From contig BDIP01000057.1 of the NCBI GenBank assembly GCA_003568945.1, positions 1-35,579 on the forward strand: a DNA stretch of 35,579 nt, written 5' to 3'. The DNA is from Kipferlia bialata (Eukaryota). The notes beneath the pieces are model-generated. The model was not told where the DNA came from and did not search any database. It was given only the letters and a program-made list of their open reading frames with translations. The position numbers and the translations under genes were made by a program. Of this stretch, positions 1 to 35,579 are shown piece by piece. How positions within the stretch are numbered: the first letter of the stretch is position 1; the number at the start of each line of letters is the position of its first letter.

Positions 1-18
1 TCTAGACCCTTATATCAG

Positions 19-3000
19 GATCAAGACCTCCAAGTGCAGCAGGATCTCCAACATCATGTTTGAGCTGCCCAAGGACTTCAACTCATTCAGTGCAGGTATA
101 TATATATATATATTATATTATATTCCACTATACACATGTATATATATATATTTATATATGTGTGTCGGTTTGAGCTGCCCAAGGACTTCAACTCATTCAG
201 TGCAGGTATTCATATGCATGTATACACTATATATATATGAATGTGTGTATGTGTATTTGTATATACTTCCACTCATCCCAGGCCTGTGGCTCAAGGTCCA
301 GAACTACCTCCAGCTGGACAACGAGGTGGGTATCACATATTATATATATTTATTGGTATGTTCATATTAGCCTTCACATACACATGGATAATAGGTCCAG
401 AAGTACCTCCAGCTGGACAACGAGGTGTGTAGCACGTATTATATATATATTGGTATTATGATTTTCTTATGTGTCATACCAAAGCCTTCCGCATTTACTG
501 TGGTGTTCCCCCATAACTATTCCTTCCTTCCACGTCCGTCCATTCTTCTCCCTTGTCTCACCGGACGTGTTATCCCTTTTCAATGTTGTATTTGATTTCT
601 CATATATATATTCGTAATCTCTCTAACCCCAGGGCAGAGAGGCCCGAGACGAAATACTCTATTGTGCATATGTATATTACATCTCTAGTATATTCATATT
701 ATATACATATTGTATACAAGTATGTATCTTCTCTCTGACCCCAGGGTAGAGAGGCCCGTGACGGGGACGACGATGAGGATGGTGAGTAGTACGCTATACT
801 ATATATATACATCAATAGATGGATACTATGAATAAGTATATAGGGATATATATATATATACATATATTTGTGACGGGGACGACGAAGAGGATGGTGAGTA
901 CATGGTAATAGTATCCCATATTGAGCCATTTACTCCTTTTAATGTGACATAGATTCACTCTCACTCAGAATCTATCTCTCTCTAATTATATTCTGTATAT
1001 TATTATTATTAGTATTACTACTTCACATATACCTGACCCCCAGACAAGCACCGTGACTCTCTCTCTCTCCCCCTATCTCTCTCTCTATATATACATATAC
1101 TGTTATGTATGTACCTGTACTGTATATATATACTATCTTACTATCAGACAAGCACCGTGACAGAGAGCTGCCCCACATCACAAGGGAGTTCTTCTTCCAG
1201 GTGTGTGTCTCTCTCTCTCTCTCTCTCCCTCTACACCCTTATTCTGTAGAACCACATCACAAGGGAGTTCTTCTTCCAGGTATCCCTCTCTCTCTCTATG
1301 TCTCTCTCTCTCTTTCTACACCTTTAGATTATCGAACCACGTCAGTAAAGAGTCATTCTTCCAGGTACATATATGTATAGATGTACAATATCTCCCATAT
1401 TCCACGGAACTCATCATCCGACATTTGTCTCTCTTTCTTTCTCTCTCTCTCTCCCTCTACACCCTTAATCCATCTCTCTCTCTTTTAGTTCTCTCTCCCT
1501 CTACACCCTTNCTACACCCTTAATCCATCTCTCTCTCTTTTAGTTCTCTCTCCCTCTACACCCTTAATGCATAGAACACTGTCATCCAACAGCTATCTCT
1601 CTCTCTCTCTCTACACCCTTATTAACTAGACCACTGTCATCCAACATTAATCTCTTTTATACTTATCCCACCATATACTCCCCTAATACCCAGAACAATG
1701 TTATCCACTGCATCTCTCTGTCTCTCTCTCTCTCTCTTCCTCTACACCCTTAATGCATAGAACACTGTCATCCCCTGCATCTCCCTCTCCCTCTACACCC
1801 TTAATGCATATATATATATATCTCTCTCCCCCTCTACACCCTTAATGCATAGAACACTGTCATCCACTGCATCTCTCTCTCTCTCTCTCTCTCTACACCC
1901 TTAATGCATAGAACACTGTCATCCACTGCAGTCAGAGGAGGCGCTACCTGCTGTTCTCATGTCCCAACAGCCAGTTTGATAGGTATAACATATACATTAT
2001 ACATACTATATAGGTGTATTGTATATATATAGTGTATATATAGTGTATATATGGTGTATATGTATTGGTATATACCTGCTGTTCTCTTATGTCCCAACAG
2101 CCAGTTTGACACAGGTATTCTCTTTACAATATTCACTGTATAATAAATCATGTAGATATATGGTTATAGGTATGCTGATACTGATACTGATAATTGATAG
2201 AATATATTATTCTCTAATTGATATGTGATGTAGCTCAATGTGTATAATCCCTCTAACCCTCAGGTTCTGGACGCAGAGGGTGGACAACGAAATACCTTAT
2301 CTGTATAGTATATATGGTGATTGCAGAATCGCAATATGGTTGTGTTTTGTGTATATATTGTATAGTAACCGTCAGGTTCTGGACCCAGAGGGTGGACAAC
2401 CGCAAGCTGGTGTTCTGGAGACTAGGTAGAGACTGTATGTATACTGTCTAGGCATCCCCGAGTTCGTGAGGGAGAGCTGTTTCCATGAATCACATACATA
2501 TAAGACATATATTCACTATTCATATAGGTATATATATATGTATCAATATTGTAGTATTCATATAATTATATGTACATACCTCACCCTAGGCATCCCCGAG
2601 TTTCTGAGGGAGACATATGTCCAACACTTCCTATCCCATTCATATATATATCATATATGTCCATGTATCATATATATGTCTGATATATATAATATATGTC
2701 ATGTATACGTCATTCATGGTATCTATATAGATATCTGACTAGTTAGGCATCCCCGAGTTCTTGAGGGAGAGCTATGTCCTGCACCCCGAGATGTCACAGC
2801 AGTTCCAGGTATATACTATATATGTATTATATATAATATCTATATATGTATATAATATACTACATATAGTATAGTATATATATAGTTGGAAATATATATA
2901 GTATATGTCCTGCACCCCGAGATGTCACAGCAGTTCCAGGTATGTATCGGTATTATATAGTGCATTATATTATATATACATATATATATATATATATGTA

Positions 3001-3750
3001 TACTATAGTATATATATATAGTATATAGTATATGTCCTGCACCCCGAGATGTCACAGCAGTTCCAGGTATAGATATATATCTATATATATATATATATAT
3101 GCACCCACTAATATGGATATGTATATATACCATACCATAATGTGTAGACCCACCACATATATATACCTTAATATACCTTAATATTGTATATATTCAATGC
3201 ATCACTACCCCCAGGGTGGCCAGTTCCCCATGCACCCACTAGTGAATATATGTATATGTATTATTACACACCACATATATACCTACGTAATGTGGTATTA
3301 TTATATATTATTGTATATATACCATAATAATATATATATATTTACTATCTCACCCTCCAGGGTGGCCAGTTCCCCATGCACCCTCCCCCTCCCATGCACC
3401 CACAGACGTTCCTACCAGGTCCCCCACACGTGGTACGTCAAACGTCAAACGTCAAACGTCAAATGGATATATATATATATATATACTTCCTACCAGGACC
3501 TCCACACGTGGTACGTCAATGAACTTCAAGTGATACATTGTTGTATCTCTCACTGTAGCAACTCTCTTTCTCTCTCTCTCTCTCTCTCTATCTAACAATA
3601 GCAGCAGGCTCTTGCCCGGATGGCTGCCCATGGACATATGCCCCCCCACCCACACCCCCACCCACACCCACACCCACATGGACATGGACACCCACACATG
3701 GTATATAGTATATATAGTATATATAGTATGTATAGTAAGTATAGTATATA

Positions 3751-3783
<33 letters not shown>

Positions 3784-6700
3784 CACATGGGCATGGACAT
3801 GGACACCCACACATGGACCCTCACATGGTGAGTATTATAATGCGATGATCGTATGCCATATACATATTAATAGTATATATACCCTACATATGGACATGGA
3901 CACCCTCACATGGACCCACATATGGTATGGATATATATAGTGTGTATATATATATATACATATACGTAGTATATGTGTACCCACATATGGTATGTGTATT
4001 AGTACCTATACACAATATATTTTCCATTGGAAGGATACACATACATATGTAGATCCATATACTGGTTTAGTGTATATACATAATATTATGTATACGTACT
4101 GATGTGTCTCATCTCCCCCCCAGTTCCATTGTGAGAAGATATATTTGCATGGACATATATATTAGTATGTCTGTGTATACTGTCTTGGTATACTGTGTTA
4201 GTATTCTATCCCACCCCCAGTATAGGTATATATATATATTTGTATTGTATACTAGTATAAAATACATATGTACATCTCTGTGTCTCACCCCCAGTTCCAC
4301 CATGGCCCTCATATCGTAAGATAATATGCATGTGTATACTAATATACATATATATATATATATAGTAATTGTATTATACATGTGTATCTCACCCCCAGTT
4401 CCACCATGGCCCACCTGGACACGGTCACGGACATGGTACGTATATTCATTATATATATAGATGTATACTACTTTTTATGAATAGTATATATAGATGCATA
4501 GACATATATTGGTGATGACCCACCTGGACACGGACACGGACATGGTACGTAACATATATATTCATATATAAGTATATATGTAGATAGGATGATAGATGTA
4601 GTTAATACTTATATATATACATGTCACCTGGACACGGGCACGGACATGGTACGTATATATATACTAATATATATATACACGCCAACCCAGACCCTGGACA
4701 TGGGCATGGTATGTAGGTGTATGTGTATTCGACAGACACACATATATTAGTATGTATCTATGTCTGTATATACCCTAACACATCAGACTCAGGCAGGGGC
4801 CACAGACACAAGCATAGATATCAAATTCTATGAATGTATACATATGTTAATTATTAGGGATGTATAGATATGTGTGTGTGTCTATATAGTGTTGTTATGC
4901 CCTTACCATCAGGCCCAGGCAGAGGCCACAGACATATATGTATATGTACATACATATGTGTATATTGTTTACTACTAACCTATATATACACACACACACA
5001 CATATATATACATATATACCCTAACCCATCATAGTGTTGATATACTTATACATACTTATATATACTTATATATATACTTATATATATATATGTACTTACT
5101 GTCAGGCCCAGGCAGAGGCCACAGACACATGTATGTCCAAGTGCATATATATTTGTATATATCCACACATTACTATATATGTAGGTAGGTATATACCCTA
5201 ACCCATCAGGCCCAGGCAGAGGACCTAGACATATATGTATATGTATATTCACCTTCTGTGTGGTATTTACTAACCTATCTACTTATATATGTGTATAGTA
5301 CTATGCCCTTACAATCAGGCCCAGGCAGAGGGCATAGACACAGGCCCAGGCAGATATATATATATATATACATATATACCCTAACCCATCATAGTGTTGT
5401 TATGTACTTACTATCAGGCCCAGGCAGAGGGCATAGACACAAGCACGGACACGGGATGGGGAGGGGGATGGGGAGAGAGGTATGAATATAAAGATGAAAA
5501 GTACATTCCCTCTCCACTATTCTTCTAGGCACAACATTGCATGATGGATCAGACATATATTTGTATACTGCTGTATAGTGTGTATATTTATATGTACCAA
5601 GTATACATGTACGCACATCCTATAGCCTTCTGTGCTACACCCTTTATCCATGCCTCTACACCCTTATATGACAGGCCCTGCAGTGCATGATGGAGCAGAC
5701 CCATGCCGCTGGTGTGCAAGAAGAGAGGGAGAGGTATTATTAATATGTATATATATATGTATATAGGCTATATGTATATTGGCTCTATGTATACATATAT
5801 AAACTATAGTATATACATTCATTATGCAAATATGAATATCAAGAGAGGGAGAGGTAATATATGTAAAGATATATACACATATATATATATATACGTATGT
5901 ATTGGACCATTGTATATACCTGACCCCCCAGACACCAGACTCTCTTCATTTGTTTCTCTCTCTCTCTCTATGTTTACACTCTCTCTGTCTATTCTATGTA
6001 TATATATGTGTGTTAGACTAATACATATATCTGACCCCCCAGACACCAGAGTACGATGCATGGGGACACAGACATGGTATCCAGGTATGTGCATGTATAT
6101 ATATATATGTGTGCGGTATATTATTAGAAACAGTATTCATTAGTGTATAAAATGATGTTTCTTATCCATAGATGTAGAGACAGCCAGTGCCCCAAGTGAG
6201 AAGGAGAGGGAGAGGGAGAGGGAGAGAGAGACTGAGTCCCGTGAGGAGAGTGATCTGCACCATGGCCTGTCGTCACTGGCTGAACTGGCATCCGAGATAG
6301 ACACGGGTGGGTTTATATATATGTATATATATATACTGAGAGAGCTGACTGTATCATACTCATTGTATACATAAACTACATATTGCTATTGCACTCATCG
6401 TCAGGTGCCAAGTCCTCGGCTAAGAATGACACTGGGGGAGAGAGGGAGAGACAGAGGGAGAGGGAGAGGGAGAGGGAGAATGTGCCTGATGGGGCAGTAG
6501 GTATGTATAGTGTAGATAGATGTATATATCTATACAACTATACAGTATATACACTCTAACAGTAGGCCAGACAGGAGACAGAGAGAGAGAGAGAGAGATG
6601 CATACTCACACCCATGATAGGGAGAGAGAGAGATCTGCAACATCGACAGAGAGAGAGCATGGGGGAGAGAGAGAGAGAGAGAGGAGCACATCGGATACTA

Positions 6701-6834
6701 GGGAGAGAGAGAGAGAGAGAGATGACAGAGAGTCATTGGAGGACAGGCAGAGGGCCTATAGAGAGCACTTCATGCACATGCACGGGAGGAGGTATACCTA
6801 TATGTGGATATCTATAGTTATGAACATATATATG

Positions 6835-6867
<33 letters not shown>

Positions 6868-7201
6868 GGGGGGCACTTCATGCACATGCTCGGGAGGAGG
6901 TGTATATCAATATGTACATACATACTGTGACCCCCATAAGAGTAACTGTATATCAGAGTTCCTTATTACAATGCCCTTATTCCAATAGCACTATTCTAAT
7001 TGCAGGATGCACATGAAGCGCCAGTATATATGCATATATATATATATTTATATTGCTTATTCTAATGGTCTTATTCTAATGACAGGATGCACATGAAGCG
7101 CCAGTACATGCAAGGGATGAAGGGTGCAGTCAACCCCAGCATGTTTGGCGGGGGGACAATACCAAGGCCAGGTATATATCTATAGATATATATACATATA
7201 T

Positions 7202-7241
<40 letters not shown>

Positions 7242-9282
7242 CTGTATCCTATACACAGAGACAGAGAGATTTATGATAATATGCTTACATGTATGTATCA
7301 ACCCCAGCATGTTTGGAGGGGGGACAATACCAAGGCCAGGTATATATATATACACAGATATATATATGTGTATATTTGTGGGGAGAGAGAGAGAGAAAGA
7401 CTTTGGTGAGTGGGGACAATACCCAGACCAGGTGATTGAGTTGTTTGCTAGAAATATACTTTGCTATATATATAAAGAGATTGATGTGAATGAGTTTATA
7501 TATGGCTACCCAAGCATGGTTGGAGGGGGGACAATACCCAGACCAGGTATATATATATATAGATATATACACACATATATATATACCTGTATCCTATACA
7601 CAGAGACAAAGAGATTTATGATAATATGCTTACATGTATGTATCAACCCAAGCGGGTTTGGAGGGGGGACAATACCCAGACCAGGTAGTGTAGTATATGT
7701 AAATGGTATATATATATATATAGAGAGAGAGAGATAGAGATTGAGAGATGACTCTTCCAGTATGATACCTCTCCCTCTAGCCCCTTATTCCTCTCTGGTT
7801 ACATAATGAGACTATTTTATATGTATCATCTCTCCTCTCTCTTTGCCCCATGTGTCTCTCTGGTTATGTAGCATTATTCTCTCCCTCCCTCTAGCCCCTT
7901 ATATCAGGCAGTTGTTTGCACCAGTGTGTTCTCTCTCTCCCCCTCTACACCCTTATATCAGGCGGCTGTATGCACGGTCATGGCCCAGGGCCATACGGGT
8001 TCCCATCAGGTGAGTGTATTTTCTATGTTCTCTCTCTCTCTCTCTCTCTATGTTACGTGTCATATCCACCTCTCTCTCTCTCTCTTTCTCTCCCTATAGA
8101 TAGGTATACTCTTACAGTCATTCCCCGAGTACTTCCGTGCCATATTCACCTTTCTCTCTCTCTCTCTATCTCCCTCTCTCTCTATATATATATGTATATA
8201 CATATTCTAACCCCCCAGTCCCCGAGTACTTCCGTGCCATATCTGTGATGCCCCCAGAGACACAAGTGGTGCATGTACGTGTGTATGTTTACCCACATGT
8301 TTACCCTAGGACATATACTAGTTTATTGACCTTGTATGTAATATATAAGTATACATATCTGATGTGCCATATCAGTGATGCCCCCAGAGACACAAGTGGT
8401 GCATATACGTGTATATATATATACATATGTATATATATATGTATGCACAGTCCTGTACACATTGTTGTGATGCCCCCAGAGACACAAGTGGTGCATGTAA
8501 GTATATATATATACATATACATACATACACCTATACTGTACACTACCATATTGGAATATACATACTTACATAATGATATATATATGCATATATATAGTAC
8601 ACCTCTGGCACAAAGTGTGGAGACTCTTAGATTACACATTTACTATTGCTATATTATATACTACAACAATTGCCATGTCCATATGTACCTGACCCCCCCC
8701 CCCCCAGGTCCCTACTATTATATATGTATGTGTGTGTGTATATATATAATGATGATATGGGATGTATATACTGTCCTGGCACAGGGTGTCAAACAATTAC
8801 ATTCTATCTTACTATTAAATAATTATTGTTACAAAAATATGAAAATTGTATTATTATTTTACACACATAGAATTAATGATTGTTCAATGTATACTATTAC
8901 AATGTATATACCTGATACCCAGGTGCCTGTCCCGTGGCACAAGGTGCCTGACGTACTGCACATGCTGCTGGAAGGTATACAGGGATATATATATATATAT
9001 ATATATATACTCCTATGCATATACTATAGATATACTATATATATATATGTACATATAGTATTATATATACAAGGTGCCTGATGTGCTGTACATGCTGCTG
9101 AAAGGTATGGATACAAGGATATAGTGCATACGTATATATACTTATATATATGATATACTGAAGACAAGCATACATACTGGTGTATGGAAGAATAGAGTGC
9201 CTGATACACACTATTATATATGTACATATAGTAATATATATACAAGGTGCCTGATGTGCTGCTGGAAGGTAACACCTATTTC

Positions 9283-9337
<55 letters not shown>

Positions 9338-10461
9338 CCCTACACCCTTAACACCCAGGCCTTGATGACATGAACCACATGATCAGTGATGTGCCCAGCA
9401 CAGACAGGTATATATACATATATATATGTTAATAGTTAAGATTCAGTATATACATACAATGTATAATATATATATAAATATATATGGTGTGTACTTATGA
9501 ATATATGAACCACATGATCAGTGATGTGCCCAGCACAGACATGGTATGATTGAGTATGGAGACAATATACATTAATATATATGAATATATATATATAGTG
9601 TATAATATGGTGTATACTATTATATTTGTATATATATAATGATGACTATTATGTTGGATATCACTTGTATGTATGTATTAGTCTTATCCCCCAGGTGCCC
9701 ACCCATCAATGCTGCCCAGAATGTCCACTGGCTCTCTCTCTCTCTCTCTCCCCCCCCCTCTCTCTCAATATATATACATATTCGCATACTCATTAACCCT
9801 AAGGGTTCCACCCCGCAATGCTGCCCAGAATGTCCACATGTACAGAGACGCCATTGACAGTGACAGGTACTGATACACTTTGCATATATACTATATATAT
9901 ATATATAGTATATATATATATAATGTATGTCCACATGTACAGAGACGCCATGGAGGGGGAGAGGTATAGAGGGTATATATTGTATCTACTCTATCTATTG
10001 TATATATATAGTATGTACTCATACCAGGTCCAGACCCATGTCCCAGCGACCCCCCTCTCATATGGGCACACCAGGCGACAGGGGTAGGGAGAGGGAGAGA
10101 GAGAGAGACATGCCCACAGCCACAGTGGCATCCCTGGAGACAGAGCAGCAGGTATATTGTTATATACATATACTATATACTATAGTGCCTATATACTATA
10201 TATAGTGGATATACTCAATACTGCCACAGTGGCATCACTAGAGACAGAGCAGCAGGTATTTATACTATATACATCCTCTACACCCCTAATGATTTTGCTC
10301 ATCTCACCCTTCAGGTCGAGAGGGAGAGAGAGAGAGAGAGAGTCCTCGCCCAGGAGAGAGAGGTCAGACGCGTGCCCCAGGGTGGGGAGAGAGAGAGAGA
10401 GAGAGACCAGGGGTATGGGCACGGTACTCCCGCCAAGAGAAGACCCTCTTTCACAGGATGA
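19..10461 (+). CDS. Gene 1: multi-exon hypothetical protein (5' end outside window), ~610 aa visible; globular-looking N-terminal part followed by His/Pro/Gly-rich and Glu/Arg-rich low-complexity regions
   Basis: Manual GT-AG exon chain: 19-95, 282-325, 745-781, 1148-1200, 1912-1982, 2376-2425, 2747-2808, 3361-3432, 3602-3700, 4399-4435, 5418-5479, 5675-5733, 6043-(6050 or 6084), 6172-6306, 6405-6500, 6566-6791, 7086-7171, 7962-8009, 8219-8268, 8923-8974, 9359-9407, 9804-9866, 10028-10151, 10315-10461 (TGA). It reads IKTSKCSRISNIMFELPKDFNSFSAGLWLKVQNYLQLDNEGREARDGDDDEDDKHRDRELPHITREFFFQNTVIHCSQRRRYLLFSCPNSQFDRFWTQRVDNRKLVFWRLGIPEFLRESYVLHPEMSQQFQGGQFPMHP...GYGHGTPAKRRPSFTG*. Phases agree at all junctions except around 5675-6172. 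No family recognised. Confidence 0.8.
168..900 (+). repeat. Intronic partial copies (echoes) of gene 1 exons 1-3 including splice sites
   Basis: 168-209 is identical to 58-99 (exon end + GTAT). 393-427 matches 294-328 with 1 mismatch. 623-651 copies the acceptor and start of exon 745. 870-900 copies the end of exon 745-781 + GTGAGTA. Confidence 0.95.
1033..1871 (+). repeat. Echo array around exons 1148-1200 and 1912-1982
   Basis: Acceptor echo at 1033-1057 and donor echoes at ~1252-1283 and ~1336-1367. Five acceptor echoes of (CTACACCCTTAATGCATAG)AACACTGTCATCC occur at ~1556, ~1625, ~1690, ~1743 and ~1834, separated by (CT)n tracts. Confidence 0.93.
2073..3237 (+). repeat. Echo array around exons 1912, 2376, 2747 and 3361
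   Basis: Donor echo at 2073-2117. Acceptor echoes at 2253-2288, 2449-2480, 2588-2622 and ~3206-3237. Two perfect donor echoes, TATGTCCTGCACCCCGAGATGTCACAGCAGTTCCAGGTAT, at ~2904-2943 and ~3031-3070. Confidence 0.95.
3436..3463 (+). repeat. Heptamer tandem repeat (CGTCAAA)x4 directly after a splice donor
   Basis: gtaCGTCAAACGTCAAACGTCAAACGTCAAAtgg follows exon 3361-3432. Confidence 0.9.
3781..5352 (+). repeat. Echo array around the His/Gly-rich exons 3602, 4399 and 5418
   Basis: Several GGACATGGACACCC...CATGGT copies at 3781-3995. CCCCCAG|TTCCA acceptor echoes at ~4113 and ~4285. CACCTGGACACGGNCACGGACATGGTACGTA donor echoes at ~4519 and ~4625, with a degenerate one at ~4693. Five TCAG|GCCCAGGCAGAGG-type acceptor echoes at ~4783, ~4909, ~5102, ~5206 and ~5314. 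Confidence 0.93.
6873..10259 (+). repeat. Echo arrays around the 3' exons of gene 1
   Basis: Donor echoes at ~6873; ~7297, ~7400, ~7508, ~7642 (GGGGACAATACCMAGRCCAGGT x4); ~8363, ~8466; ~9069, ~9243; ~9505; ~9928; ~10221. Acceptor echoes at ~6991, ~7892, ~8110 and ~9683. Confidence 0.93.
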
Positions 10462-10780
10462 AAGTTCTCTCCTGCACCCTTTTGCCACCCATGTTGTCGG
10501 GATGAGCAGAAACAATACCGTTCCAATTGTTTTCATGTATTTGTGTTCTCACTGTTGTGTTGTACAATAGACATTATTGAATGACGAGTGATGAATGATC
10601 AGAGTGAATTCTCTTGATTGTAATCGTGCTCTTTGTTTGCATAGTTACTAAATGTATGTTCCATGTGACTAATAAGGATATGCTTACGAATCTATTACTG
10701 TAATGCAGTAATCGAGAGAGAGATGAATGTGCTTGTATGTATATGTAATGAATATTTACATATGCAGAACAAAGAGAGAC

Positions 10781-11032
10781 CAAGTGGTCCAGTCCTGAGA
10801 TTTCTCTCTCTCTCTATCTCTCTCCCTCTACACCCTTAATCCAGGTCCCACTGTGTCCAGTCCCGAGACGCCTCGTTCTCTCTCTCTCTCTCTTCCTCTA
10901 CACCCTTAATCCAGGTCCCACTGTGTCCAGTCCTGAGAGGCACGCATCGACTGCTCAGCTGCTAGCTTCTGCTGCTTGGCACGGAGTCTCTCCATGGCAG
11001 CCTGAGATAAGGGGTACAGTACGAGTAGCGCA

Positions 11033-11069
<37 letters not shown>

Positions 11070-14000
11070 AGACTCTCTGTCTATACATATACTATAACAT
11101 ATCTTACCTGTCTCTCTCTCTGTTGTAGGGCGAGCAGTGCCTGTCTCTCCCGTGTCTCTCTCTCTCTCTCTTCTCTCTAGACTCTATATCTATATACACT
11201 ATTATATATCCTACCTGTCTCTCTCTCTGCTGCAGTGCTAGCAGTGCCTGTCTCTCCCGTGTCTCTCTCTCCCGCCTCTCTCTCTCTAGTCTGGCTCTGT
11301 TGTGCACAGCTGAGAGCTTGCCCTGACTCCTATGATTAGATGCGTTAGAGTGTATATACATATATGATGTATGAATTGCATTTATGTCTATATGTATTAG
11401 CCTGGCTCTGTTGTGCACAGCTGAGAGCTTCCGCTGACTCCTGAGGTTAGATGCAATAGAGTATATGTATATAGTCGCCGCTCTCTCTCTCTCTATATAT
11501 ATATATAATATCTCCATGACTTCATTATAGTAGCACTGTTACCTTACGTAACCCTTGCCCTCATGTCTCCGGACTCTCTCTCTCTGTGCCTGGGCTGCTC
11601 TATCAGCCTCAGTCTGCACTGCCTTCTCTCTCTCTCTCTCTCCTTGTGTGGAGGAAGAGGCCTCTGTGGCCTCCCTCCCTCTCTCATCTCTCTGTTCTCT
11701 CTTTCGCTGCTCTCTCTGCTGACGTTCTACCTCCCTCTGTCTCTCAGCCTCCTTCTCCGATCTCTCTTTCTGTCTGCGTATCTCCTGCTCCTGCTTCTCC
11801 CTTGCAACCCTCTCCCGTCGCTCCTTGGCTACCTAACTAGTGAGACTGATGACTAGTCCCACGTAGAGTCCACAATGATATTCATACTCGGAGAAGGTAG
11901 TGATTGAACAGTCAACCATAAGGTGAGATACACTAAATGAACTCTCGTACCTCGGCCTCTCTCTCCCTCGCTGCTGCCTCCTCTCTCTCCCACCGCTCCC
12001 TGTTCTCCCTCTCTCTGGCCTGGGCATAAGGGTTGAGAATAATAACCAGCTGATAGTGAAGCCGATAGATCTATACAAATTCTATGTATTGTGATCTATA
12101 GACTACATTTCATATACCACATACCTCTCTCTGTTCCTATGTCTCATTGTTGTACTACTTGTCTAGCCTAGACTCTAGGCTATATATGTACAAATTGAAT
12201 AATACAATAGATATATCTATATATATACAGTATATTACAATTAATGTGGATATATTATGTATATGTACATACCTCTCTCTGCTCCCGTGTCTCATCATTG
12301 TTCTGATTGACCTTGGCTCTGGCCCTGGCAGCAGCAGCCTCTGCCTCTCTCTTGACCTAGGGGTGAGAGTGGGTTACTCGTTATAACAACTTGTTATTAT
12401 CGCACTCCTTATAAACGAGTGATTACATATGTGTGGTGAGAGTGTAAGGACATACTATCAACTATTATAAGAATACATGGGTTGTGCTATTCCTAGCTCC
12501 CTCTTGACCTAGATGTGAGTGTGTATATTGACGACCGTATAGAACTAATGCCCCGGTAATAACCTTGCGTGTACCAACATACACATAGTACACATACACA
12601 AATGTATAATACCACATGGAGACTGGTACACAATATATAAACATATACAACATGTCATTCTACAAAAGAGAGGATTAGAGAATGCATGGACCCCACTGTA
12701 GCATCCCAGGCCCTCCTAGCGGCCTCCTCTCTCTTCTTCTGTGCCCGTATAGAGCCATATACAGAGACTTAGATTGTGGCATTCTATGCTAGAGAGATTG
12801 CATGTGTGTATAGTACCTTGGCGTCCCAGGCCCTCCTTGCAGCCTCCTCTCTCTTCTTCCGTGCTGCTTCCTTGGCCTTCCTCTCAGCAGAAGTCTCTCT
12901 CTTGGTTTCTCTCTTAGTCTCTCTCTGAGGTTGTGGCTTAGAGGCCTTAGCCTGACATAAGTATGATAGATACATAGAGTTGTTGACAAGCATCGGGGTT
13001 AGGTATACTAGCAGTGGTGAGATATATGCTTTGGGTGGGTATGAGTTGGAGGTATAAATGTCCGATACCTTCGCATTGCCAGTAGTGTGTGGTCTAGTCC
13101 CCTTAGCACCCTTAGTCCCTCCACTGATGCACTTGCAGTACTTGTCATAGGCTGCCCTCTCATCTGCATCACTCAGGGTCTCATAGGCACACTGTAATAA
13201 GTATACAGTCATTTACACTCATACATATCTATATACACAAGTATATCATATATCATATACTATATGTACATGTCCTCTCATCTGCATCACTCAGGGTCTC
13301 ATAAGCAGCCTTAGGATATATATATATGTATATGTACATGTCCTCTCATCTGCATCACTCAGGGTGTCATAAGCGGCCTTGAGTTAGTGTACACACAAAC
13401 AAGTATACATATATCGTTGTTTGCAAGAGATCACAAGTTGCTGGGTACTGTATGTACCTTGAGACGCTTGAAGACCTCATATACCTCAAAAGATACAAAA
13501 ATACCTCCTATAATGGTCACAATACAAAGGTGCAAGAGACCACTGTAATAATTGATACCTTGAGACGCTTGAAGACCTCTGTGGCCTCCTCTGATCTGTC
13601 CAGATTGCGGTCTGAAAAGTGAGCGAGAGAACAAGATACAATTTCTTTTACAATCAGGTTATAGAACATCTAACACTAGATAGCTGTCTGACCAGTGAGA
13701 GATGGTGCAGAGGATGACGCGAGGACAAAGATATATACATTACTATTATATAGTCTATAGTCTATAATCAATGGTCTACACTTATACTCACCAGAGTGCC
13801 ACTCCAGGGCCATCCTACGATAGTACGTGCATACGAATTGTATATAGCACATACAGTACATGTAGAAGGTATTACTATGTAGTGTAACAGTATGTAGTAT
13901 GTACTCACCAGGGTGCCACTCTAGTGCCAGCTTCCTGATCTACCATGATACCATGGTATATAGTGATATATATATATAGTGCTCTATAGTCTACTATATT

Positions 14001-16617
14001 ATATATATATACATTATATACATTATATATATACTATATATATATATAATATATATATCATATATGTAATATGAGTACATACTCACCAGGGTGCCACTCC
14101 AGGGCCAACTTGCGGTATGCCTTCTTGATCTCAGACACAGTGGCAGAGGGGGTAACGCCAAGGCTCTGGGGTTGGAATACGATACATATAGTATTGGTAC
14201 AGTACGCCGTCTTGATCTGAGGGACAGTGGCAGAGGGGGATTCATATACTATTAGAGTCAATATATTAGTGTAACCATACATGAATACATACACATAGAT
14301 ATTCGTATTGAAGATAGTATTCAGTGGCAGAGATAGACTACCTCAGGTAGTGACACCAAATGTGAAAGGATTAGGCAGTGCTATATAATTGCTATAATGG
14401 CAATTGTGCTTGATACTATACTAATGTAGTACACTATACGATTCAATTCTCAGGGACAGTGGCAGAGGGACGCCAGGACTCTGATGGTAAACTATGGTAT
14501 ATGGTATATGGTATACACATACCTTATAGTAGTACTCTTGACACGAACTAGACTTGGTGGCCAATGAATGATACTTGGCAAATACACAATAATTCACATA
14601 CCTATCAATATGTATATATATGTGTATCTTACCTTATAGTAGTCCTCTTGACACGAACTATACTTGGTGGCCCTGGCCCTAGCATTGGCGTTCTCCCTCT
14701 TCCGTCTCTGCCTCTCCTCCTCATCAGCGACATCTCTCTTCTCTCTCTCTCTCTTCTCTTGCTCCTTCCTCTCCTTCTCTCTCTGCTTCTTCTTCTGCCT
14801 CATCTCATTGGCCACTCTCTCCCTCTCTCTTGCATTCTCCTGCGCCACTCGCTCTCTCTCCCTCTGGCGCCTGGCCTCGTTGGCCCCGCTGCTCTCTCTC
14901 TCCCTCTCTAGCTGACGCGTGAGTGATTGCACTTGTCTCTCTGCTTTAACACGTGCCTCTCGCTCAGTCTCAGCCAAGCCTGATAGTTTGGCGCACTCCA
15001 CCTCTAGTCTCTCTCTGAGTCTCTCGTACTGCCGGGTCTTGTCGTCTCTGTTACGCTCAGCCTTCTCCCTGGCCTCCCTCTCCAGCTCTCTCTCCCCAAT
15101 GAGCACGGCAACCTGTATTGGTAAGTGTCCTTGATATATCCCCTAATATCAATATGTATATGGAATAGCCATGCAATATTACAATTACTCCTATGCACCC
15201 ACCTGTCTCAGCAGCTCAGTCTCGCCCAGACTGTCGGTCTTGTCCCCATCCATCTCATAATCCCTCTCTCCCTCTCCGTCTATCTCTCCCTTCTCTACTA
15301 CATCACCGGTATGACCAGCTGTCTCTGCACTCTCAGAATCTGGAGCATGTAGAGTGACAGATGGTGTCTCGGCAGGAGTGCTCTTGGCGCTCAGTTGGGC
15401 CTCAAGTTCCTATACGTAAGAGTATATATATGTGCAATAGTGTACCCGTTAACACACTGTCACCGACAGACTAATCCTACCACGTACTAGATCTATATGG
15501 CAACCATAAAGGAAATAATATGTGTATGTGGAAAACGGTTTGGGCCTCCAGTTCCTATGGATAGGTGAATGAATACTGGTAGAGGTATAGATCTAGGCAG
15601 TAACCCACCTGTATCCTGGCATGTAGTGACGTGTTCTCTGTCAGAACTGAGTTCAGTGACTGCCTAGAACGTTAGTCAAACGGTATTCATTGGAACAAGT
15701 GATAAGATACTATATACTCACACTATACATTGTAGTATATATTCACCTCATCGTTTCCTTCTCCTGTCTCTCGCTGTCCCTCTCCTTGCTGTATAGGGTG
15801 GCCTTCTCCTTGAGGGACTCGATAGTCATCCTGATGTCAGTGCATATGGTTTATGGTATATATATATATATATGTATATATATATCATTATACATATAAT
15901 ATAAACATATGATAACAATAGGGTAGTCTTCTCCTTGAGTGATAGTTATCCTGCAGTGTCATGTACACATTTTGTACATACACCATATAAGTAGTCTATA
16001 CGAGTATATCACATGTGCATACCTGCAGTACTTGCTCATCACACCCCTCTGCACAGTGGAGATATACATGTATACATATACACATGCATATATCACATAG
16101 GTATTCTATGGGAGTTTGGGTTATATACCAAGTGCATACCTGCAGTACTTGCTCATCACACCCCGCTGCACAGTGGAGATACGGCGCTGGGGTAAGTAGT
16201 GAGTCTCAATACTATTTATCTCTTTCTCTCAATTTGAAAGCAAAAGAATATGTGCATTGACACCTCGAAGAATGGATAGCGGAGGCTAAAACTTGTATAC
16301 GAGGTATAGAAGATTGGTCTGAAGTGGGTCTAGATTTCTATATATCACCTTAGCTGCTGCCAACTGTGATGCCAGTGCCATTGCCTGACTCTGTGCTGTG
16401 TCTCTCTCCTCCCTCAGGGTCTGGATCAGTTCAGCTGCCCTCTCCTGTTGTGAGGATATATATAGAGGGTATAGATACTCACTGTCTCTCTCTCTGTATA
16501 TATATCGATATATATTGGTTTCTCATGGGTCGGGATGAGTTGGGCAGTCCTCTTCTGCAGTTAGAGATTCAGAAGATACACGCTACATGCTGCCCCCTGC
16601 TACCACCCCAGCACTTT

Positions 16618-16650
<33 letters not shown>

Positions 16651-16703
16651 TGTACAAGTATATATATATGAATCTTTGTCGTACCTCCTCTCCCTCTCTG
16701 CCA

Positions 16704-16736
<33 letters not shown>

Positions 16737-16942
16737 CATGAATCTTTGTCATACCTGCTCTCCCTCCCGGCCCCTCTGCTCCTCAGAGAGATGGCGCTGG
16801 GGTTAGAAGGATCACTTCAGAGAGACAAGAATGACAGAAACTAGGGTATGCATTAGATTGAAAGAGCTCGAGGTGTTCTGATCGTTGTACTATACCTGTG
16901 TGTCCTCCAACCTGGCAGCTTGTCTCTACTGCTTGTCTCTAT

Positions 16943-16973
<31 letters not shown>

Positions 16974-19650
16974 TCATTAGATGGGTATATATATACATAC
17001 ACTATACCTGAGCGTCCTCCAGCCTGGCATTGAGGCTGGCTATCTGTAGGGTGGCACGGTGGAAGGCCTGGGATAAGATATTCGTGGACTCAATGGATCT
17101 AAGTATATGAATATGTCTATAACAATCATATACTGAGTTACCAGTTGGCTATCTGAAGGGTGGCACGGTGGAAGGCCTACGAGTACATCATACCTCCTGA
17201 CAGCACCTCAGGGAGGTGTAATCCGTACGGTGATTGGTGCCAGCTGATGCTGGGCTAGGTGCTTCTGGATCCGAGGCGTCTGGCTCTGAAGCGCCGAACG
17301 GTGTACGGTTGACGGTGTACGTTGCTGGCTCCGAGGCGTCTGAGTCTGTGTCCAAGTCCATATCCACTGGGTTTTCATTGAACACATCACTCTCTCTCCC
17401 CCCCTCTCTCTCCCTCTCTCTCTCCCTCTCTCCACCTTCCTCTGCTTCTCTCTGTGTTGAGGTCTGGTCACCCAAGTCGGAGGACTCACTGAACCCATCA
17501 CTGTACTCTCTCTCTGTGTCCTGCTCTCTCTCCCCCTCTGTTGACTTGTCACCTTTCTCTCTCTCTCCATCTGCTCTCTCTCTTGACATGTCATCGGAAC
17601 CATCACAGTCCCAGTACCACCTGTCCCCACCACTCTCTCCCTCTCCCTCTCCCTTTGCATCCGGCTCTCTGTCTCCCTCTCCATCTATGCCATCAAGCTC
17701 AGAGCCTTCACTATCACTAGCTGGCTCCACCTCTCCCTCTCTCTCTCCCTCTGTCTCTGCTACTCTGAGTGGGACACCCTCACCACTAGGGGTTGTGACC
17801 CTAGAGCCTATGCTAGAGTCAGGGTCAGTTGTCACCCACACAGCCTCTGCTACCCGCTCATGCACAGAGGACGTAGCAGTATCAGCACCAGTTTCATGAT
17901 CTGCAAAGGTGCACTCATGGACAGAAGACGCAGACACACTCTCTAAGGGAGTCTCTACTAGAGTCTCTTCCTCGCCTTCCCGGTCTCCATCTCCTAGTAT
18001 CTCACTCTCCAGTTCCTCTGTGGTCTCAGACCCTGCACCAGAGAACTCCTCTCCCTCTCCCTTTTCATCTCTCTGTGACCATCTCCCCGCCATAGGGAGA
18101 TAGGTATCAGTATAACTACCACCCACACTCTGGGCCTGGGCTGTATCCTCTCCCTCTCTCTCCCCCCCTCTCTCTTCCCCTCCCTCTGCCCATCTCCACT
18201 CCCCATAGAGTGAGGGAGTATGAGTACGAGTACTAGCACCACTCACACTCTGGGTATGTGCTGTATAGGCAGCATAGCCAAAGCTCTCTGTGTCCCTCTC
18301 TCCCTGTCCTACTTCCCGTCTATCTACCTCTCCTACCCCTACAGTTGGGGTGTATACCTCATATGTATACAGAGGATACACCTTAGGCCAGGGATCCTTC
18401 TCTCCCCCTTCTCCTCCCTCTTCTATCCTAGTGCGAGTACCTACAGTACCAATAGTCTGAAGACTCACATTCTCCTCTCTCCCTCCCTCCCCCACTGCCA
18501 TAGGCCTCTTGCCCTCCCCATGTCTCTCGCCCTCCCACTGCTTAGGTCTCTCCCTCTCTCCTCCCATGCCCCCTTCTACCTCTGGTGGCTCTAGAGGCCT
18601 GTCGAATCCCCTGCGGCTATAGAGTCTCGGTCCAGTGCTGGGTCTCTGGGTGGTACTGGGAACGGTGTGCGGTGTACCGGGTACAGCGACGTTGGGTAAC
18701 GTGTAGAGACGTGAAATGGGTGTACCCAGAGAAGACCCTCCAAGGTGGTAGTAGGGATAGACTGGAAAGGCTAGAGGAGGCTCAGGTGCCTAGAGAGTCA
18801 GAATATATAGATAGTATGTATTAATATAGTATATATATATATATATATAGTATAACTATGACTCTCAATGTTCCGTGCACTATAAATAGATATACACATA
18901 TACATATATATATATATGTGTGTGGGTATTGATATGTATATATATATATGCATACCCTGGGTGGCTCAGGCACAGACTCAAGCATTTAGTATATAACACA
19001 CCCACCCACTATTCATAGTGTATTATCCTTATATAGATGTATATATGCAGTATATATACCTTGGGTGGTGGTTCAGGCGCATACTCCAGCATCTAGTATG
19101 AACCGTACCCACACTATTCAATGAATAGTATTCGTGGTGTCCACTATGAATAGTATTCATAGCGTATTATACATATGTATATACAGTACACATATACCTT
19201 GGGAGGTGGTTCAGGCACAGACTCCAGCAGGGCAGCCACTAGCTCTGTGAATCTGGCTGTTAGACTAGTATGATCCTGAAAAATAGACAGATAGATACAT
19301 GTATATTGCACACACTCTATAGTAAGGTAGATAACATTATACATGCATAGTATATAATGTGAATATGTCTTGCTTCTCTGGGTCCACCTTCCTCACCCAG
19401 TACCCTCTCTCTATACACACACATATATATGTGTATATGTATACATTCATCTATATACCGTACCTCTCTGGGTCCACTTTCCTCACCCAGTCTGCGAGGC
19501 CCTGGGCCATCTGGGACTGGGTCTAGGGGTAAGAATGGGTATATATATACACATACATCAAATAGATACTATTTGTATACGATAAGTATTATGTAGTATC
19601 TGTCAGTCTGAGAGGCACTGTGCCGTCTGGGACTTCTGTATGCTGGGGGG
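10781..19650 (-). repeat. Partial exon copies (echoes) throughout gene 2 introns and just past its stop codon
   Basis: Examples: 10781-10800 and 10826-10870 (terminal codons + TAA); 11104-11180; 11398-11455; 12121-12152; 12495-12513; 12700-12745; 13273-13315; 13340-13385; 13455-13480; 13786-13823; 13903-13936; 14202-14240; 14449-14484; 14521-14563; 15541-15558; 15918-15953; 16015-16062; 16671-16702; 16893-16917; 17146-17179; 18953-18984; 19058-19092; 19374-19401; ~19606-19637. Polarity matches gene 1 relative to the transcribed strand. Confidence 0.93.
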
Positions 19651-20070
19651 TGACAGAGAGGAGAGGGTGTATACGGTAATCTATACCATGTACTGTATAT
19701 ACGTATGGGGTGAATATGTGTACCCCTTCTGCTATCAGTATAATCTTGTGCTACGTAGTGAGGAAGAGAGAGTATACCCAGAAACACATTACACTAAGAA
19801 TAGCACACACATGGGAGAGAGGGAGGGAGTATATGGATCTACGTTTGAGTATGAGGGGGGGGGAAATGTGTGTGGTGTTAGAGGGGATAGAGGGAGGGAG
19901 GAGGTGTTGGAGGGCAGTAATTAATACAGTATAGTATGCAGAAGTTTGGTATGATGTGGGAGGGGGGAGGGGTATTCAAAGTACATCACATACCTCATAA
20001 CCATCTGGAATGATTCCGAACTGTGGTAGTCCCTGAGCCATGTCATACACAAATACCAGGTGGGTATGGT
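10906..20070 (-). CDS. Gene 2: large (~1300 aa) coiled-coil/low-complexity protein with an internal DnaJ (J) domain; true 5' end not identified
   Basis: Minus-strand exon chain with consistent phases: 20070-19994, 19522-19464, 19264-19198, 18789-17194, 17067-17008, 16796-16755, 16444-16349, 16186-16140, 15830-15747, 15663-15609, 15409-15203, 15112-14633, 14165-14087, 13611-13559, 13191-13069, 12951-12817, 12356-12273, 12019-11951, 11832-11543, 11329-11215, 11001-10906 (…SQDWTQWDLD TAA). It includes ORF-track segments 17188-18567, 14594-15106 and 12784-13212. Confidence 0.85.
13144..14647 (-). other. J-domain of gene 2, split over four exons
   Basis: Spliced sequence EDYYK|SLGVTPSATVSEIKKAYRKLALEWHP|DRNLDRSEEATEVFKRLK|CAYETLSDADERAAYD matches the canonical J-domain pattern (DYY..LGV...A...EIKKAYRKLA...HPD…F..I..AYE.LSD...R..YD). 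The Asp codon of HPD is split by an intron. Confidence 0.95.
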
Positions 20071-20099
20071 CTGGAATGAGTATTGTATAATATACTTAC

Positions 20100-20423
20100 A
20101 TAGAGGTATATATATATGAAGAGAGAGAGGACCCCACTCGTACAGATGCACAAGGTGGGTATGGTCTGGAATCAGGACAAACTAAAATACTTACACAGAT
20201 GTATATAATATGTATATGAAGAGAGAGAGGGGACCCCACTCGTACAGATGCACAAGGTGGGTATGGTCTGGAGTGAAATAGTTCAGTCTACTGCAGGAGA
20301 GAGAGGGGGGTGGGACAACTACTCTTACATGTCATACATATACATAAGGTGGGTATGGTCTGGAATGAGTACTGTATAAAGAGAGAGAGAGAGAGGGGGG
20401 GGGGGGGGCAACCACTCATACAG
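20100..20423. repeat. Tandem ~95-100 bp unit (3 copies plus a partial one) between genes 2 and 3
   Basis: The unit is GAGAGAGAGG(G)n-ACCCCACTCGTACAG-ATGCAC-AAGGTGGGTATGGTCTGGA, at ~20121, ~20221 and ~20297. A fourth unit at ~20381 runs into the gene 3 exon. Confidence 0.9.
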
Positions 20424-23400
20424 CACCTGCCCCCCTTCTCATCCCAGTCCCTGAGAGAGCTAGACATCTCCTTCAACCCCCTGTCCAGTGTCAATGAGTT
20501 GGCCAAGCTCAGGAACCTAGGCAACCTGGGGGCACTCTCAGTCATGGGGTGCCCAGTGGCTGAGGTATAGATCCAGTGAATACTATATATTCATATATAT
20601 ATATATGTTACTATTTACTCACTTCCTCAGGTTGGCCACTACCGCTCCTGCACTGTGTACTTCCTGCCCCAGCTGTCTTCGCTTGACTCTGCCCCTGTCT
20701 CACAGGAGGAGAGGGTGATTGCATCGGACAGGTACTCCAAGTATAGATAGTATAGTATTGTATACTCTCAGCTAGTGATTGGATATATGTCTGTTCACTA
20801 TGACACTACTCCATGTATACTTGAATCTAGTGTTTGATTATATATTGTCACTATGATACTGACCCAGGTTCTCTAGACTGGCGCTAGATGCCGCACTGGC
20901 AGACGCTGACGCTGGTAGAGCCAGGGTATGCATGTGTATCTATGTGGTAATGAAGGGATAAGTATATATATATATACATATATAGTTATATAATCCTCAC
21001 CCCCAGATTGTTGAGCTGCAGGAGGAGATGGGTAGTGTGGTTGATAGGGAGGGTGGGCTGAGGGAGGACCTAGGCCGTGCCCAGGCCGAGATTGCCTCTC
21101 TCAGGCATGATACTGATACTGACACCTATACTGATATTGATGCTGATACTGATACTGATACTGATACTGATACAGACACCTGATAGAGGCAGCCACCAAG
21201 AGAGACGGGGTGCAGAGACAGCTGATACAGGACAGGAACAGCCAGCTGGCAAGGGTACGCGGACGTATATTTATCTCTGAGTATATACTGTATATGTATA
21301 TACTGCATATATATATACTGTATTCCTCCTCACTCACACTTTCTGTTATCACTTTCTGTTCATTGTCACTGACCCCCAGATGAGTGGCCATGCCATACTA
21401 ATATGTGCTATGTATTTGTATGTGATGTTTCCTATGTCTTTCTACACGTCACCCGTCTTTCATTGTACTGACCTCCCAGATGAGTGGCCATGCCATATAT
21501 ATGTGTGCATACTATATGTACCTTCCTGTTCAATGTCACTAATTACTGACCCCCAGATGAGTGGCCATGCCACAGCCCAGATGGACGGAGGGTTCCACTC
21601 TGTATCACTGGCCATGTCTGCCACTCCCCAGGCATCGCAGCAGCCTGTGGATGGAGAGAGGGAGAGAGAGACTGTGCAGGAGGAGAGGCAACCCCTCTCC
21701 CCGTTCTCCACTGCCTCCCTTGACCACTCTCCCCAGACCCAGGGGGGTATAGAGGGTATAGAGGGTATGGGCATCCAGGATACAGACTATGCCGCTGAGG
21801 TGGCCAGGCTGACCCAGGCCCTGAGAGATGCAGAGACCAGGGAGAGACAGGGGGGGGAGAGGACTAGACAGGCGATGAAAAGGGCAGAGTACCTCTCGTA
21901 CCAGGTACTCACTATATCTTCTGCTATACATATATATATGCAGATACATTTATATATATATATATATATACATATTCTCAGTCCCCCCTCACTCCCAGGT
22001 CCAGGAACTGACATCACGCGTTACCGCAGCCGAGGCCAAGAACGGAGCAGAAGGGGATAGGGGAGCTGTGGAGAGAGACTGGGCCCAGAAGTTGGATGTG
22101 GCACATCACAGGGCACAGTCTGCAGAGAGACGGGCTGCAGAGGCAGAGGCGCTGGTTGCTGAGGCAGAGCAGAGAGAGAGAGAGTCGCTGGAGAGAGAGA
22201 GGGAGAGGGAGGGGAGGGACGGGGACATTGGGATGGCGCTCAGAGAGGCAGAGAGGGAGAGAGACTCTGCCGTGAGAGAGAGAGACGAGGCAGAGGCAGA
22301 GAAGGCTGAGTCTGAGGCATCCACGTCTACTGAGTTACACGCCCTCTCTCTCAAGGCAGAGACGGCTGAGAGAGAGAGAGACACCGCCCTGGACTCTCTC
22401 AGGGATGTGAGGGAGCAGGTGGAGGCGGCACAGGCTGAGTGTGACAGACTCAGAGCTGTGCAAGCCACATACTCTCCCCCTGCCGTCCACTACACCCCTT
22501 CCAAGGCTGCCCGTCCCGATCTCTCTGCGTTGGTGTCTGCTGTTCGTGACCTCTCCACCTCCCTAGGTGTCAGGATGGAGAGGGGCACTGCTTCCGCAGA
22601 CACCCAGTCCCTAGTTGACACTCTGTCCCAGTGCACCTCTGAGGCCAGGAGGCAGAGGAGACAGGGGGAGAGAGAGCGGCAGAGACAGGCCAGGTCACCC
22701 TCGAGCACCGACTCTGAGGCATCTGACTGCATCGCTAGGATCAGAGGTGCCCTATTTATGGGAGGACTGGATATGCCTGCTGACTCTGACCCCGCTGAGG
22801 TGGTGGAGCAGATACTGGCCGAGAGAGACACCCTCTCACTCAGACTCAGGACAGCTCAGGCAGAGCTGGATGCACAGGTATCAACTATTGACATACACTC
22901 AAACCCTCTCCCCTATAGTGTATTGTACTTGAGACATAATTGAATGTATTCCTCACCCTTCAGGCTGCCTACATGGCTGACCAGTCAGACTCTGACACAG
23001 ACACAGAGGGAGATGGTCTGGGAGGTAGAGGAGAGAGGGAGAGGGCCCTTGCTGCCCAACTCTCACAGGCTGAGGACAGGTGCACATCCCTCAGTGCAGA
23101 GCTGAAGGAGAGAGAGAGAGCTATGGCAGCCTTGACAGCCAGGCAGACCCAGACACTAGAGGGACACAGGAGTGATCTCCGTGCTGCACGTAGCCAGGCC
23201 ACTGAGGCAAGGGAAGAGGCAGCCACTGCTTCTGCCAGTGTCGCCTCCCTTACTGACCAGTGCTCTGCCCTTCAGACCCAGCTAGATGCAGAGAGAGAGC
23301 GGTGCCACGCTGCCGAGGAGAGCCTCCAGGAGGCCCTCGCTACCCCTTCAGTCACTACTACCACTGAGCCCGGTGAGGTGGATGCTCTGAGAGAGCAGGT

Positions 23401-29400: not shown

Positions 29401-29526
29401 TACGCTGGGTCTAGGAGGCACCTGGGTGACACCCCCTCCTCTGCATCCCTTGGGGCTAGGGCTAGGTCTAGGGGTAGGGCAGGGGACACCAGGCGGCCGT
29501 CAGGTGTATCTCCCTCTCCCACTTAA
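20424..29526 (+). CDS. Gene 3: ~2700 aa protein with N-terminal leucine-rich repeats + LRRcap followed by a very long coiled coil (centriolin/CEP110-like architecture); first exon uncertain
   Basis: Exons: 20424 (or 20448)-20564, 20631-20731, 20868-20925, 21007-21104, 21176-21254, 21557-21904, 21999-22877, 22964-27778, 27841 (or 27847)-29526 (TAA); all phases agree. The N-terminus HLPPFSSQSLRELDISFNPLSSVNELAKLRNLGNLGALSVMGCPVAE|VGHYRSCTVYFLPQLSSLDSAPVSQEER is an SDS22/U2A'-type LRR with LRRcap (YR..V...LPQL..LD...V...ER). The remainder is A/E/R/L-rich heptad sequence. Orthology to centriolin is inferred from architecture only. Confidence 0.88.
21105..21175 (+). other. Non-canonical GC-AG intron composed of (CTGATA)n hexamer repeats
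   Basis: CTCAG|GCATGA…CTGATACAG|ACACCTG. Read-through hits TGA at 21181. Removing these 71 nt gives in-frame ...EIASLR HLIEAATKRDGVQRQLIQDRNSQLAR ending at a GT donor. Confidence 0.8.
21368..21497 (+). repeat. Two acceptor echoes of gene 3 exon 21557 (last clear echoes in the window)
   Basis: CTGACC(T)CCCAG|ATGAGTGGCCATGCCA occurs at ~21369 and ~21467; the true acceptor ends at 21556. Confidence 0.92.
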
Positions 29527-33685: not shown

Positions 33686-33730
<45 letters not shown>

Positions 33731-35528: not shown

Positions 35529-35535
35529 GTACAAT

Positions 35536-35569
<34 letters not shown>

Positions 35570-35579
35570 CCTCTTTCTT

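Follow-up and report, generated by a model that had tools for sequence, protein, structure and literature searches.

Head-to-tail duplications across an exon-intron boundary have been described in amphioxus, where they are known as mirages. The passages on mirages in two reports place them in Adh3, the globin genes BflGb6 and BflGb9, troponin C and PGBD5, with units of 10-160 bp that lie across either boundary and often keep the AG or GT; normal splicing is unaffected, and the copies show signs of concerted evolution (PMC3087553, PMC3902484). In the human F7 gene, the covered part of PMC1557585 describes a 37-bp variable-number tandem repeat in intron 7 that sets several functional donors after the real one, the most upstream being used. 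Local duplication has also been linked to intron gain, both in the Rogers model, as cited in a passage of PMC3087553, and by tandem genomic duplication in which the duplicated segment becomes a new intron, as outlined in part of PMC3265369. Here we analyze exon-derived copies, termed echoes, in the introns of Kipferlia bialata contig BDIP01000057.1; the window is this whole contig of 35,579 nt, on which four genes were modelled. K. bialata is a free-living fornicate protist.

The echo is a unit of the mirage type, which is already published, and it also resembles the repeat of F7 intron 7 (IVS7); the first-pass annotation of this DNA, which knew of no description of such copies as a pervasive intron feature, had overlooked both. 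Like mirages, echoes are head-to-tail units over one boundary, occur at both boundary types, mostly keep their AG or GT and leave regular splicing unaffected (4/4 junctions, in one spliced contig). Whereas mirages, in the passages covered, are reported from a few animal loci and have conserved units (81-100% in BflGb6), echoes occupy 33 of 43 introns in two genes of a fornicate protist, with a narrow 110-nt step and mostly scrambled spacers, and those passages do not describe a divergence biased towards silent sites (PMC3087553, PMC3902484). The most upstream donor is used here in 4/4 introns, as in the F7 repeat, but the latter, as far as its source was covered, is a single locus with identical short units and donors only, whereas echoes include acceptors and their units are not near-identical. 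One local duplication with its splice signals reshapes the gene in a single step, as happens when an intron is gained by tandem duplication; here, however, existing introns lengthen and new splicing was not seen. A literature search that covered few subscription papers found no report of this architecture in a protist, or as the dominant intron form of one, and no report of a silent-site bias in such copies; the string 'duplicat' is absent from the covered main text of PMC5874029. The unit type is known, and what is new here is the density of echoes and their allele-like, silent-biased divergence from the exon.

To catalogue echoes, exon sequence only was compared with the adjacent introns at a local score of at least 26, which only 0.26% of 9,192 cross-gene exon-intron pairs reach; 11 echoes were re-anchored across indels and one echo acceptor was shifted 7 nt by hand. 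The resulting 67 echoes, all in introns adjoining their exon, bear out the count of more than 60 made by eye in genes 1 and 2 and the start of gene 3. Each of the 37 donor-side echoes is a 3' part of the upstream exon and lies downstream of it, and each of the 30 acceptor-side echoes is a 5' part of the downstream exon and lies upstream of it. The strict polarity claimed earlier thus has no exception (0/67), and the splice dinucleotide is usually retained (GT in 33/37 donor echoes, AG in 28/30 acceptor echoes). Whole-exon copies are absent (0/67), none of 173 tests matched an exon copy in inverted orientation, and echoes are specific to their own flanking exon, with weak matches in 15 of 1,762 non-adjacent comparisons. 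Echo-bearing introns separate genes 1 and 2 (33/43) sharply from gene 4 (0/27; Fisher p=3e-11).

Strict polarity is no sign of a system, as the geometry alone yields it whenever a head-to-tail duplication spans a single junction and the exon stays intact. A duplication across the donor would set the intact exon first and the half-copy after it, and one across the acceptor would reverse this order. Echo placement is nevertheless non-uniform despite this geometric polarity. Uniform breakpoints would yield 18 whole-exon copies among 44, against none observed, and the copied portion of eight long exons is merely 16-47 nt (values shortened by masked GA runs). The absence of whole-exon copies likely reflects the purging of copies that would win splicing.

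The step between successive copies is narrow (range 59-230), its median being 110 nt for gene 1 and 111.5 nt for gene 2. The unit consists of approximately 30 nt of exon and 80 nt of intron. Intron length is described by 114 + 134 nt per echo (r=0.91, 51 introns); gene-4 introns, all plain, have a median length of 96 nt. The spacers measure 36-153 nt (median 79.5). Tandem Repeats Finder (TRF) recovers several complete exon-plus-spacer units as tandem arrays with periods of 55-131, spacers included; residual identity on the intron side is 0.43-0.50 against a null of ~0.31, and spacer similarity is significant in 7/37 donor-side and 4/29 acceptor-side neighbor pairs. The proposal that the free ends of echoes dissolve into (TA)n, (CT)n or (GA)n describes 34 of the 67 ends and fails for the others, while 37% of background windows already adjoin such a run. 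Tandem duplication across junctions is supported by the TRF units, and 32/34 echo introns are microsatellite-rich against 11/44 plain introns, a comparison confounded by length. Junction sequences have a slight excess of purine-pyrimidine alternation (0.48 vs 0.40) that is inseparable from alignment overrun.

Introner-type elements form one family across unrelated introns and carry terminal repeats. Such a mobile intron element was considered and rejected for the echoes, as each echo resembles just its own flanking exon, with cross-gene matches at the 0.26% given above and inverted matches at 0/173.

The differences between echo and exon are concentrated at silent sites. Third positions hold 71 of 114 differences, two of the 67 echoes, beside gene-1 exon 12, being excluded from codon counts for doubt over their frame. 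With one nearest echo per junction (n=44), 4-fold sites differ at 31/183 positions (16.9%) and 0-fold sites at 25/833 (3.0%), a 0-fold/4-fold ratio of 0.18 (bootstrap confidence interval (CI) 0.10-0.29). Gene 1 alone gives 0.15 and gene 2 alone 0.21; the ratio is 0.17 after stratification by base and CpG, and is weaker for acceptor echoes only (0.26, CI 0.11-0.53). A non-coding copy drifts at all sites and its exon only at silent ones, so decay of a dead copy cannot take the ratio below ~0.5; accordingly, simulated neutral echoes set against a fully constrained exon in the identical pipeline gave 0.50, and 0.18 or less was reached in 0-0.5% of 400 runs per setting. Echoes compared with one another differ at 11/63 4-fold and 17/247 0-fold sites (p=0.014). 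Synonymous changes fall in neighboring codons more often than expected (7 vs 2.1, P=0.00025). Past the splice site, identity drops within a few bases from ~0.85-0.9 to ~0.5. Differences in the flank reach 32% at donor positions +3 to +6 and 41% at acceptor positions -14 to -3, and despite these changes the consensus score is undiminished (P<=0.0004 vs decay simulation). Within the 13 units with the best-preserved spacers, differences affect 129/477 intron sites (27%), 8/47 4-fold sites (17%) and 2/239 0-fold sites (0.8%). Mosaic patterns are seen among the copies in gene-1 introns 10 and 17. As far as sequence comparison can tell, the divergence of copy and exon must have taken place while each was a functional sequence, constrained in coding and in splicing.

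The choice among splice sites was read from record 9 of run X2, a contig of 1,464 nt whose RNA status is presumed and supported by its spliced structure; the junctions were derived from the offsets of five pieces that are consecutive in record coordinates. They are 95|282, 325|745, 781|1148 and 1200|1912. The first donor and the last acceptor are used in all four introns (one spliced contig, in which minor isoforms would be invisible), as anticipated by the first-pass annotation, and all 10 catalogued echo sites of gene-1 introns 1-4 are skipped, the AG-GT pseudo-exon included. Echo sites nevertheless score at least as high as the real site in 18/33 donors and 15/28 acceptors. Weakness of the echo sites was rejected as the explanation, mean acceptor scores being equal (7.99 vs 8.04) and donors only slightly lower (8.43 vs 9.38, p=0.04), as was masking by RNA structure through UA pairing, since donor echoes are slightly more open (0.355 vs 0.31) and acceptors equal. 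That the last acceptor wins though echo scores often equal or exceed its own points to exon definition or strong surveillance, and 5'-to-3' scanning alone would be insufficient. Pairing across the short exon is the likely way in which the outermost sites prevail. Reed and Maniatis reportedly found in 1986 that the choice between duplicated splice sites depends on the length of the adjacent exon. A donor of real strength lies within 150 nt of 9/28 acceptor echoes, a matching acceptor accompanies 0/33 donor echoes, and no remnant partner splice sites were found at the free ends of echoes; the decoy and nested-splicing roles proposed earlier gained no support. Exons of 40-60 nt stand beside a 1.6-kb gene-2 exon and a 4.8-kb gene-3 exon (22964-27778), so any exon-definition model here must accommodate very long exons. 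For a deep-branching eukaryote, genes 1 and 2 amount to a natural experiment in splice-site competition; a reduced spliceosome, with 87/174 proteins, is reported in the covered part of PMC6679479.

Another working allele is the simplest source of constrained divergence. We favor, with a probability of roughly 0.55, the reading that echoes stem from a diverged working allele, by copying or by later exchange, and not from the identical sister strand. A break or fork stall in a microsatellite-rich intron would come first, after which homologous copying would abort and be end-joined, or homologs would exchange unequally; by an alternative route, plain duplication would be followed by a crossover inside the echo and then by partial conversion. 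In a diploid, highly polymorphic population the exons would be the sole good homology between alleles, so that half of the unit would derive from another allele, and later short conversions would erase part of the differences. Echoes would be tolerated because splicing favors the outermost sites. Units that make up a full second exon or prevail in splicing would be selected against, as splicing at the echo site would lead to a stop or a frameshift in 53/59 cases. K. bialata is diploid by k-mers in the covered part of PMC5874029, and the part of the supplement of PMC8516963 that was covered lists it with PolQ and without Ku70 or Rad51A. In worms, aborted synthesis-dependent strand annealing (SDSA) followed by polymerase theta joining yields tandem duplications, which in C. 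elegans helq-1 and brc-1 mutants measure 100 bp-10 kb with a median of ~1 kb, according to passages of PMC8654963. This route is a candidate mechanism here, although clean junction microhomology is not demonstrable in echoes. No close paralog that might act as donor was found for gene 1; the gene-2 paralog, 56% identical over 286 aligned columns, was rejected as a close donor.

Several observations tell against capture from diverged alleles. The echo-echo ratio of 0.33, given without a CI, may be no different from 0.5. The number of synonymous differences per echo shows no overdispersion (p=0.57), and these differences show neither a concentration toward the splice end nor a gradient along the echo; exon divergence and flank divergence are uncorrelated. 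The amino-acid changes have no significant bias toward conservative ones (BLOSUM P=0.17), and none of the 38 changed codons is a stop. Divergence is higher at constrained flank sites than at 4-fold sites, so that allele capture needs an extra homogenization of the exon part. The silent diversity it requires, ~0.1 or more, is an assumption, and the contigs of DNA run X1 (described below) offer no alternative letters over 1-2013, contigs being prone to drop variants. The worm duplications, with their median of ~1 kb, contrast with the 110-nt step, allele capture does not account for the sparing of gene 4, and the spliced evidence is one contig of one presumed-RNA run, which spans 4/34 echo introns.

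Plain tandem duplication from the sister strand would dispense with a second allele, the AT-rich spacers being scrambled by slippage, the exon parts homogenized through conversion by the exon itself and the silent excess left to an unmodelled mutational effect. Perfect young tandems, e.g. 1821-1938, and the TRF arrays suggest that such duplication occurs, the microsatellite association agrees with it, and the covered part of PMC3087553 supplies a precedent with concerted evolution. It predicts, however, a ratio of at least 0.5 where 0.18 is observed, inherent hypermutability of the spacers does not hold for young echo-echo pairs (2/68 differences), and the flank consensus is retained despite 32-41% change; we consider it a rather unlikely account of the whole. 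It is distinctly unlikely that the copies are spare junction halves kept by selection and swapped in by pop-out or back-conversion, or else active in nested splicing, with harmful copies purged. Low 0-fold divergence, intact splice consensus, mosaic exchange among copies and the narrow unit size would all fit, but exchange frequent enough for selection should, by a population-genetic argument that was not simulated, also erase the 17% silent divergence. Nested splicing, moreover, accounts for the flanks and not for the codon periodicity, copies also form at a stop codon, and 27/27 gene-4 introns function without copies. The corresponding broad claim, that at nearly every junction of some genes the introns hold a function-tested archive of exon halves with their splice sites, kept usable by selection and returned to the gene by recombination, we hold to be equally doubtful. 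The conversion cassettes suggested in the first-pass annotation are left open by the coding-constraint signature of the echoes, a feature that the annotation had missed and that captured alleles explain more simply. Coding constraint would also follow if echoes were retired mini-exons, duplicated, once translated and then deprived of one splice site, and one AG-bounded pseudo-exon (1250-1279) has the expected form; yet this predicts remnants of wrong polarity, of which 0/67 were seen, donor-like words occur at 12/30 free ends against a 45% background, and acceptor-like scores fall below background, which makes it highly improbable.

Misassembly, in which the two haplotypes of a diploid are interleaved to give allele-like copies, seems to us very improbable as well. 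The assembly is a diploid short-read one, according to the covered part of PMC5874029, and an N at 1511 separates exact 54-nt duplicates (1457-1510 = 1512-1565), a duplicated flank that is probably a scaffold-gap artefact. Against this, a contig of 907 nt, separately assembled in DNA run X1, matches 270-1049 with zero differences and crosses the echo junctions there. It takes in three complete echoes and the first part of another, both intron-2 echoes (393-424 and 633-651) lying within it. Its depth of 412 matches that of neighboring single-copy contigs (377-413). X1 may hold the reads behind the assembly, and so provides a second assembly and not a second sample; evidence from read-derived contigs covers 1-2013 only, and X1 contains 0.90 of the words sampled from 1-10000. 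Two haplotypes, besides, cannot account for chains in which as many as five copies all differ from one another. At window positions 1-55, an 86-nt X1 contig over the exon-1 acceptor and 5' part has a depth of 1822, ~4.4x single copy; it probably represents young acceptor echoes that were collapsed into one and at which the assembly broke, giving the start of the contig. Echoes probably break assemblies and mislead gene models in K. bialata.

Should the echoes indeed be captured alleles, the introns of one genome would be a readable archive of old alleles, and intron growth here would come from mis-repair between diverged homologs and not from transposons. The 0-fold/4-fold statistic is applicable to the published amphioxus mirages as a test of allele capture.

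Table 1. Genes and individual echoes in the 35,579-nt window (positions on the forward strand).
Feature	Position	Strand	Remarks
Gene 1	19..10461	+	Orphan protein, 24 exons within the window; 45 echoes, in 20/23 introns
Donor echo of exon 1	168..205	+	38/38 nt identical; skipped (junction 95|282)
Intron 2 (gene 1)	393..651	+	Donor echo 393-424, acceptor echo 633-651; both skipped (325|745)
Intron 3 (gene 1)	870..1057	+	Donor echo 870-893, acceptor echo 1044-1057; both skipped (781|1148)
AG-preceded donor echo	1250..1279	+	30-nt in-frame pseudo-exon; skipped in the spliced contig
Acceptor-copy chain before exon 5	1545..1911	+	Copies 1575, 1694, 1761, 1853
Five acceptor echoes of exon 11 (gene 1)	4787..5417	+	Three flank types, repeated twice
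Four donor echoes of exon 17 (gene 1)	7230..7684	+	Include a young spacer-plus-echo pair (see text)
Two copies of gene-2 coding end	10787..10871	-	3' region, one through the stop codon, no splice site
Gene 2	10906..20070	-	J-domain protein KIPB_000497, 21 exons; 20 echoes, in 13/20 introns
Donor echo of gene-2 exon 20	11108..11167	-	20 codons, peptide unchanged, four synonymous codon changes in a row
Two acceptor echoes of J-domain exon	13265..13377	-	Read AAYE and AAYD; exon reads CAYE
Three acceptor echoes upstream of first modelled gene-2 exon	20149..20359	-	Outside the 67
Gene 3	20424..29526	+	Long coiled-coil-like protein, 9 exons modelled; 2 acceptor echoes, in 1/8 introns
Gene 4	29802..34556	-	SET-domain protein KIPB_000499, 28 exons; 27 plain introns of 51-164 nt, echo-free (0/27)

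Individual echoes reveal further layers of duplication. The pseudo-exon of intron 4 arose by duplication of a whole short intron, and the acceptor chain before exon 5 is passed over in favor of the final acceptor at 1912 (junction 1200|1912). The process that made the echoes also re-copied them inside introns and carried the coding end of gene 2 into its 3' region. The five exon-11 echoes are a higher-order duplication with a mosaic structure, their exon parts grouping by neighborhood and not by flank type, and a young spacer-plus-echo pair among the exon-17 echoes differs at 2/68 spacer sites vs 5/42 exon-derived sites. The gene-2 paralog P0004 reads AAYD, and the two echoes of the J-domain exon retain the paralog's residue where the exon now differs, an observation that favors the allele reading. 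Echoes of gene-1 exon 9 (3602-3924) extend 12 nt further before the GT than the modelled exon, as if a new donor arising at a duplication junction had cut exon 9 back in frame.

A separate recurrent sequence, a CT run with a fixed 13-base word, appears at 1565-1632, 1220, 5645, 7932, 9335 and 10817, in unrelated introns and mostly just before acceptors; the copy at 10817-10914 overlaps the stop codon of gene 2 in antisense orientation. Its summed depth in X1 is 554,593 vs ~400, which suggests hundreds to thousands of genomic copies, and the recurrent CT-rich acceptor motif had 0 matches in a metagenome scan.

The gene models agree closely with annotated proteins. Nineteen gene-1 exons match the partial annotated protein P0002, while exons 9, 11, 12, 16 and 17 are inferred in our model, and the reading frame over exons 11-13 depends on one putative exon-12 donor choice. 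Gene 1 begins before the window, 607 nt of the spliced contig lying upstream of position 17, and its protein has no Pfam family match. The gene-2 model is an open frame identical to P0003 over all 1290 aa, and its long exon matches the KIPB_000497 protein of K. bialata at 100% identity. The gene-3 frame is open across 2732 codons, and the gene-4 model reproduces P0005 exactly; gene 4 serves as our internal control. A metagenome scan with the long gene-2 exon returned four weak loci (30-53% identity across 17-56 residues). Within the acidic exon of gene 2, an octapeptide rich in Trp and Cys (17600-17630, minus strand) has weak matches in these loci (L001-L004), which are probably due to chance.

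Between genes 2 and 3 (20070-20564), the first modelled exons of both genes, on the minus and plus strands respectively, start at an acceptor and have no upstream start within ~350 nt; either the 5' ends of the two genes overlap or the scaffold is imperfect. The first modelled gene-3 exon in this region looks leucine-rich-repeat-like by eye. An inferred GC-AG intron at 21105-21175, required for the open gene-3 frame, is filled by a 6-nt repeat resembling multiplied branch points. Beyond gene 4 (34600-35579), approximately 1 kb of non-coding-looking DNA leads to a plus-strand exon whose acceptor and donor lie near 35438-35529; the contig closes with a poly-C run.

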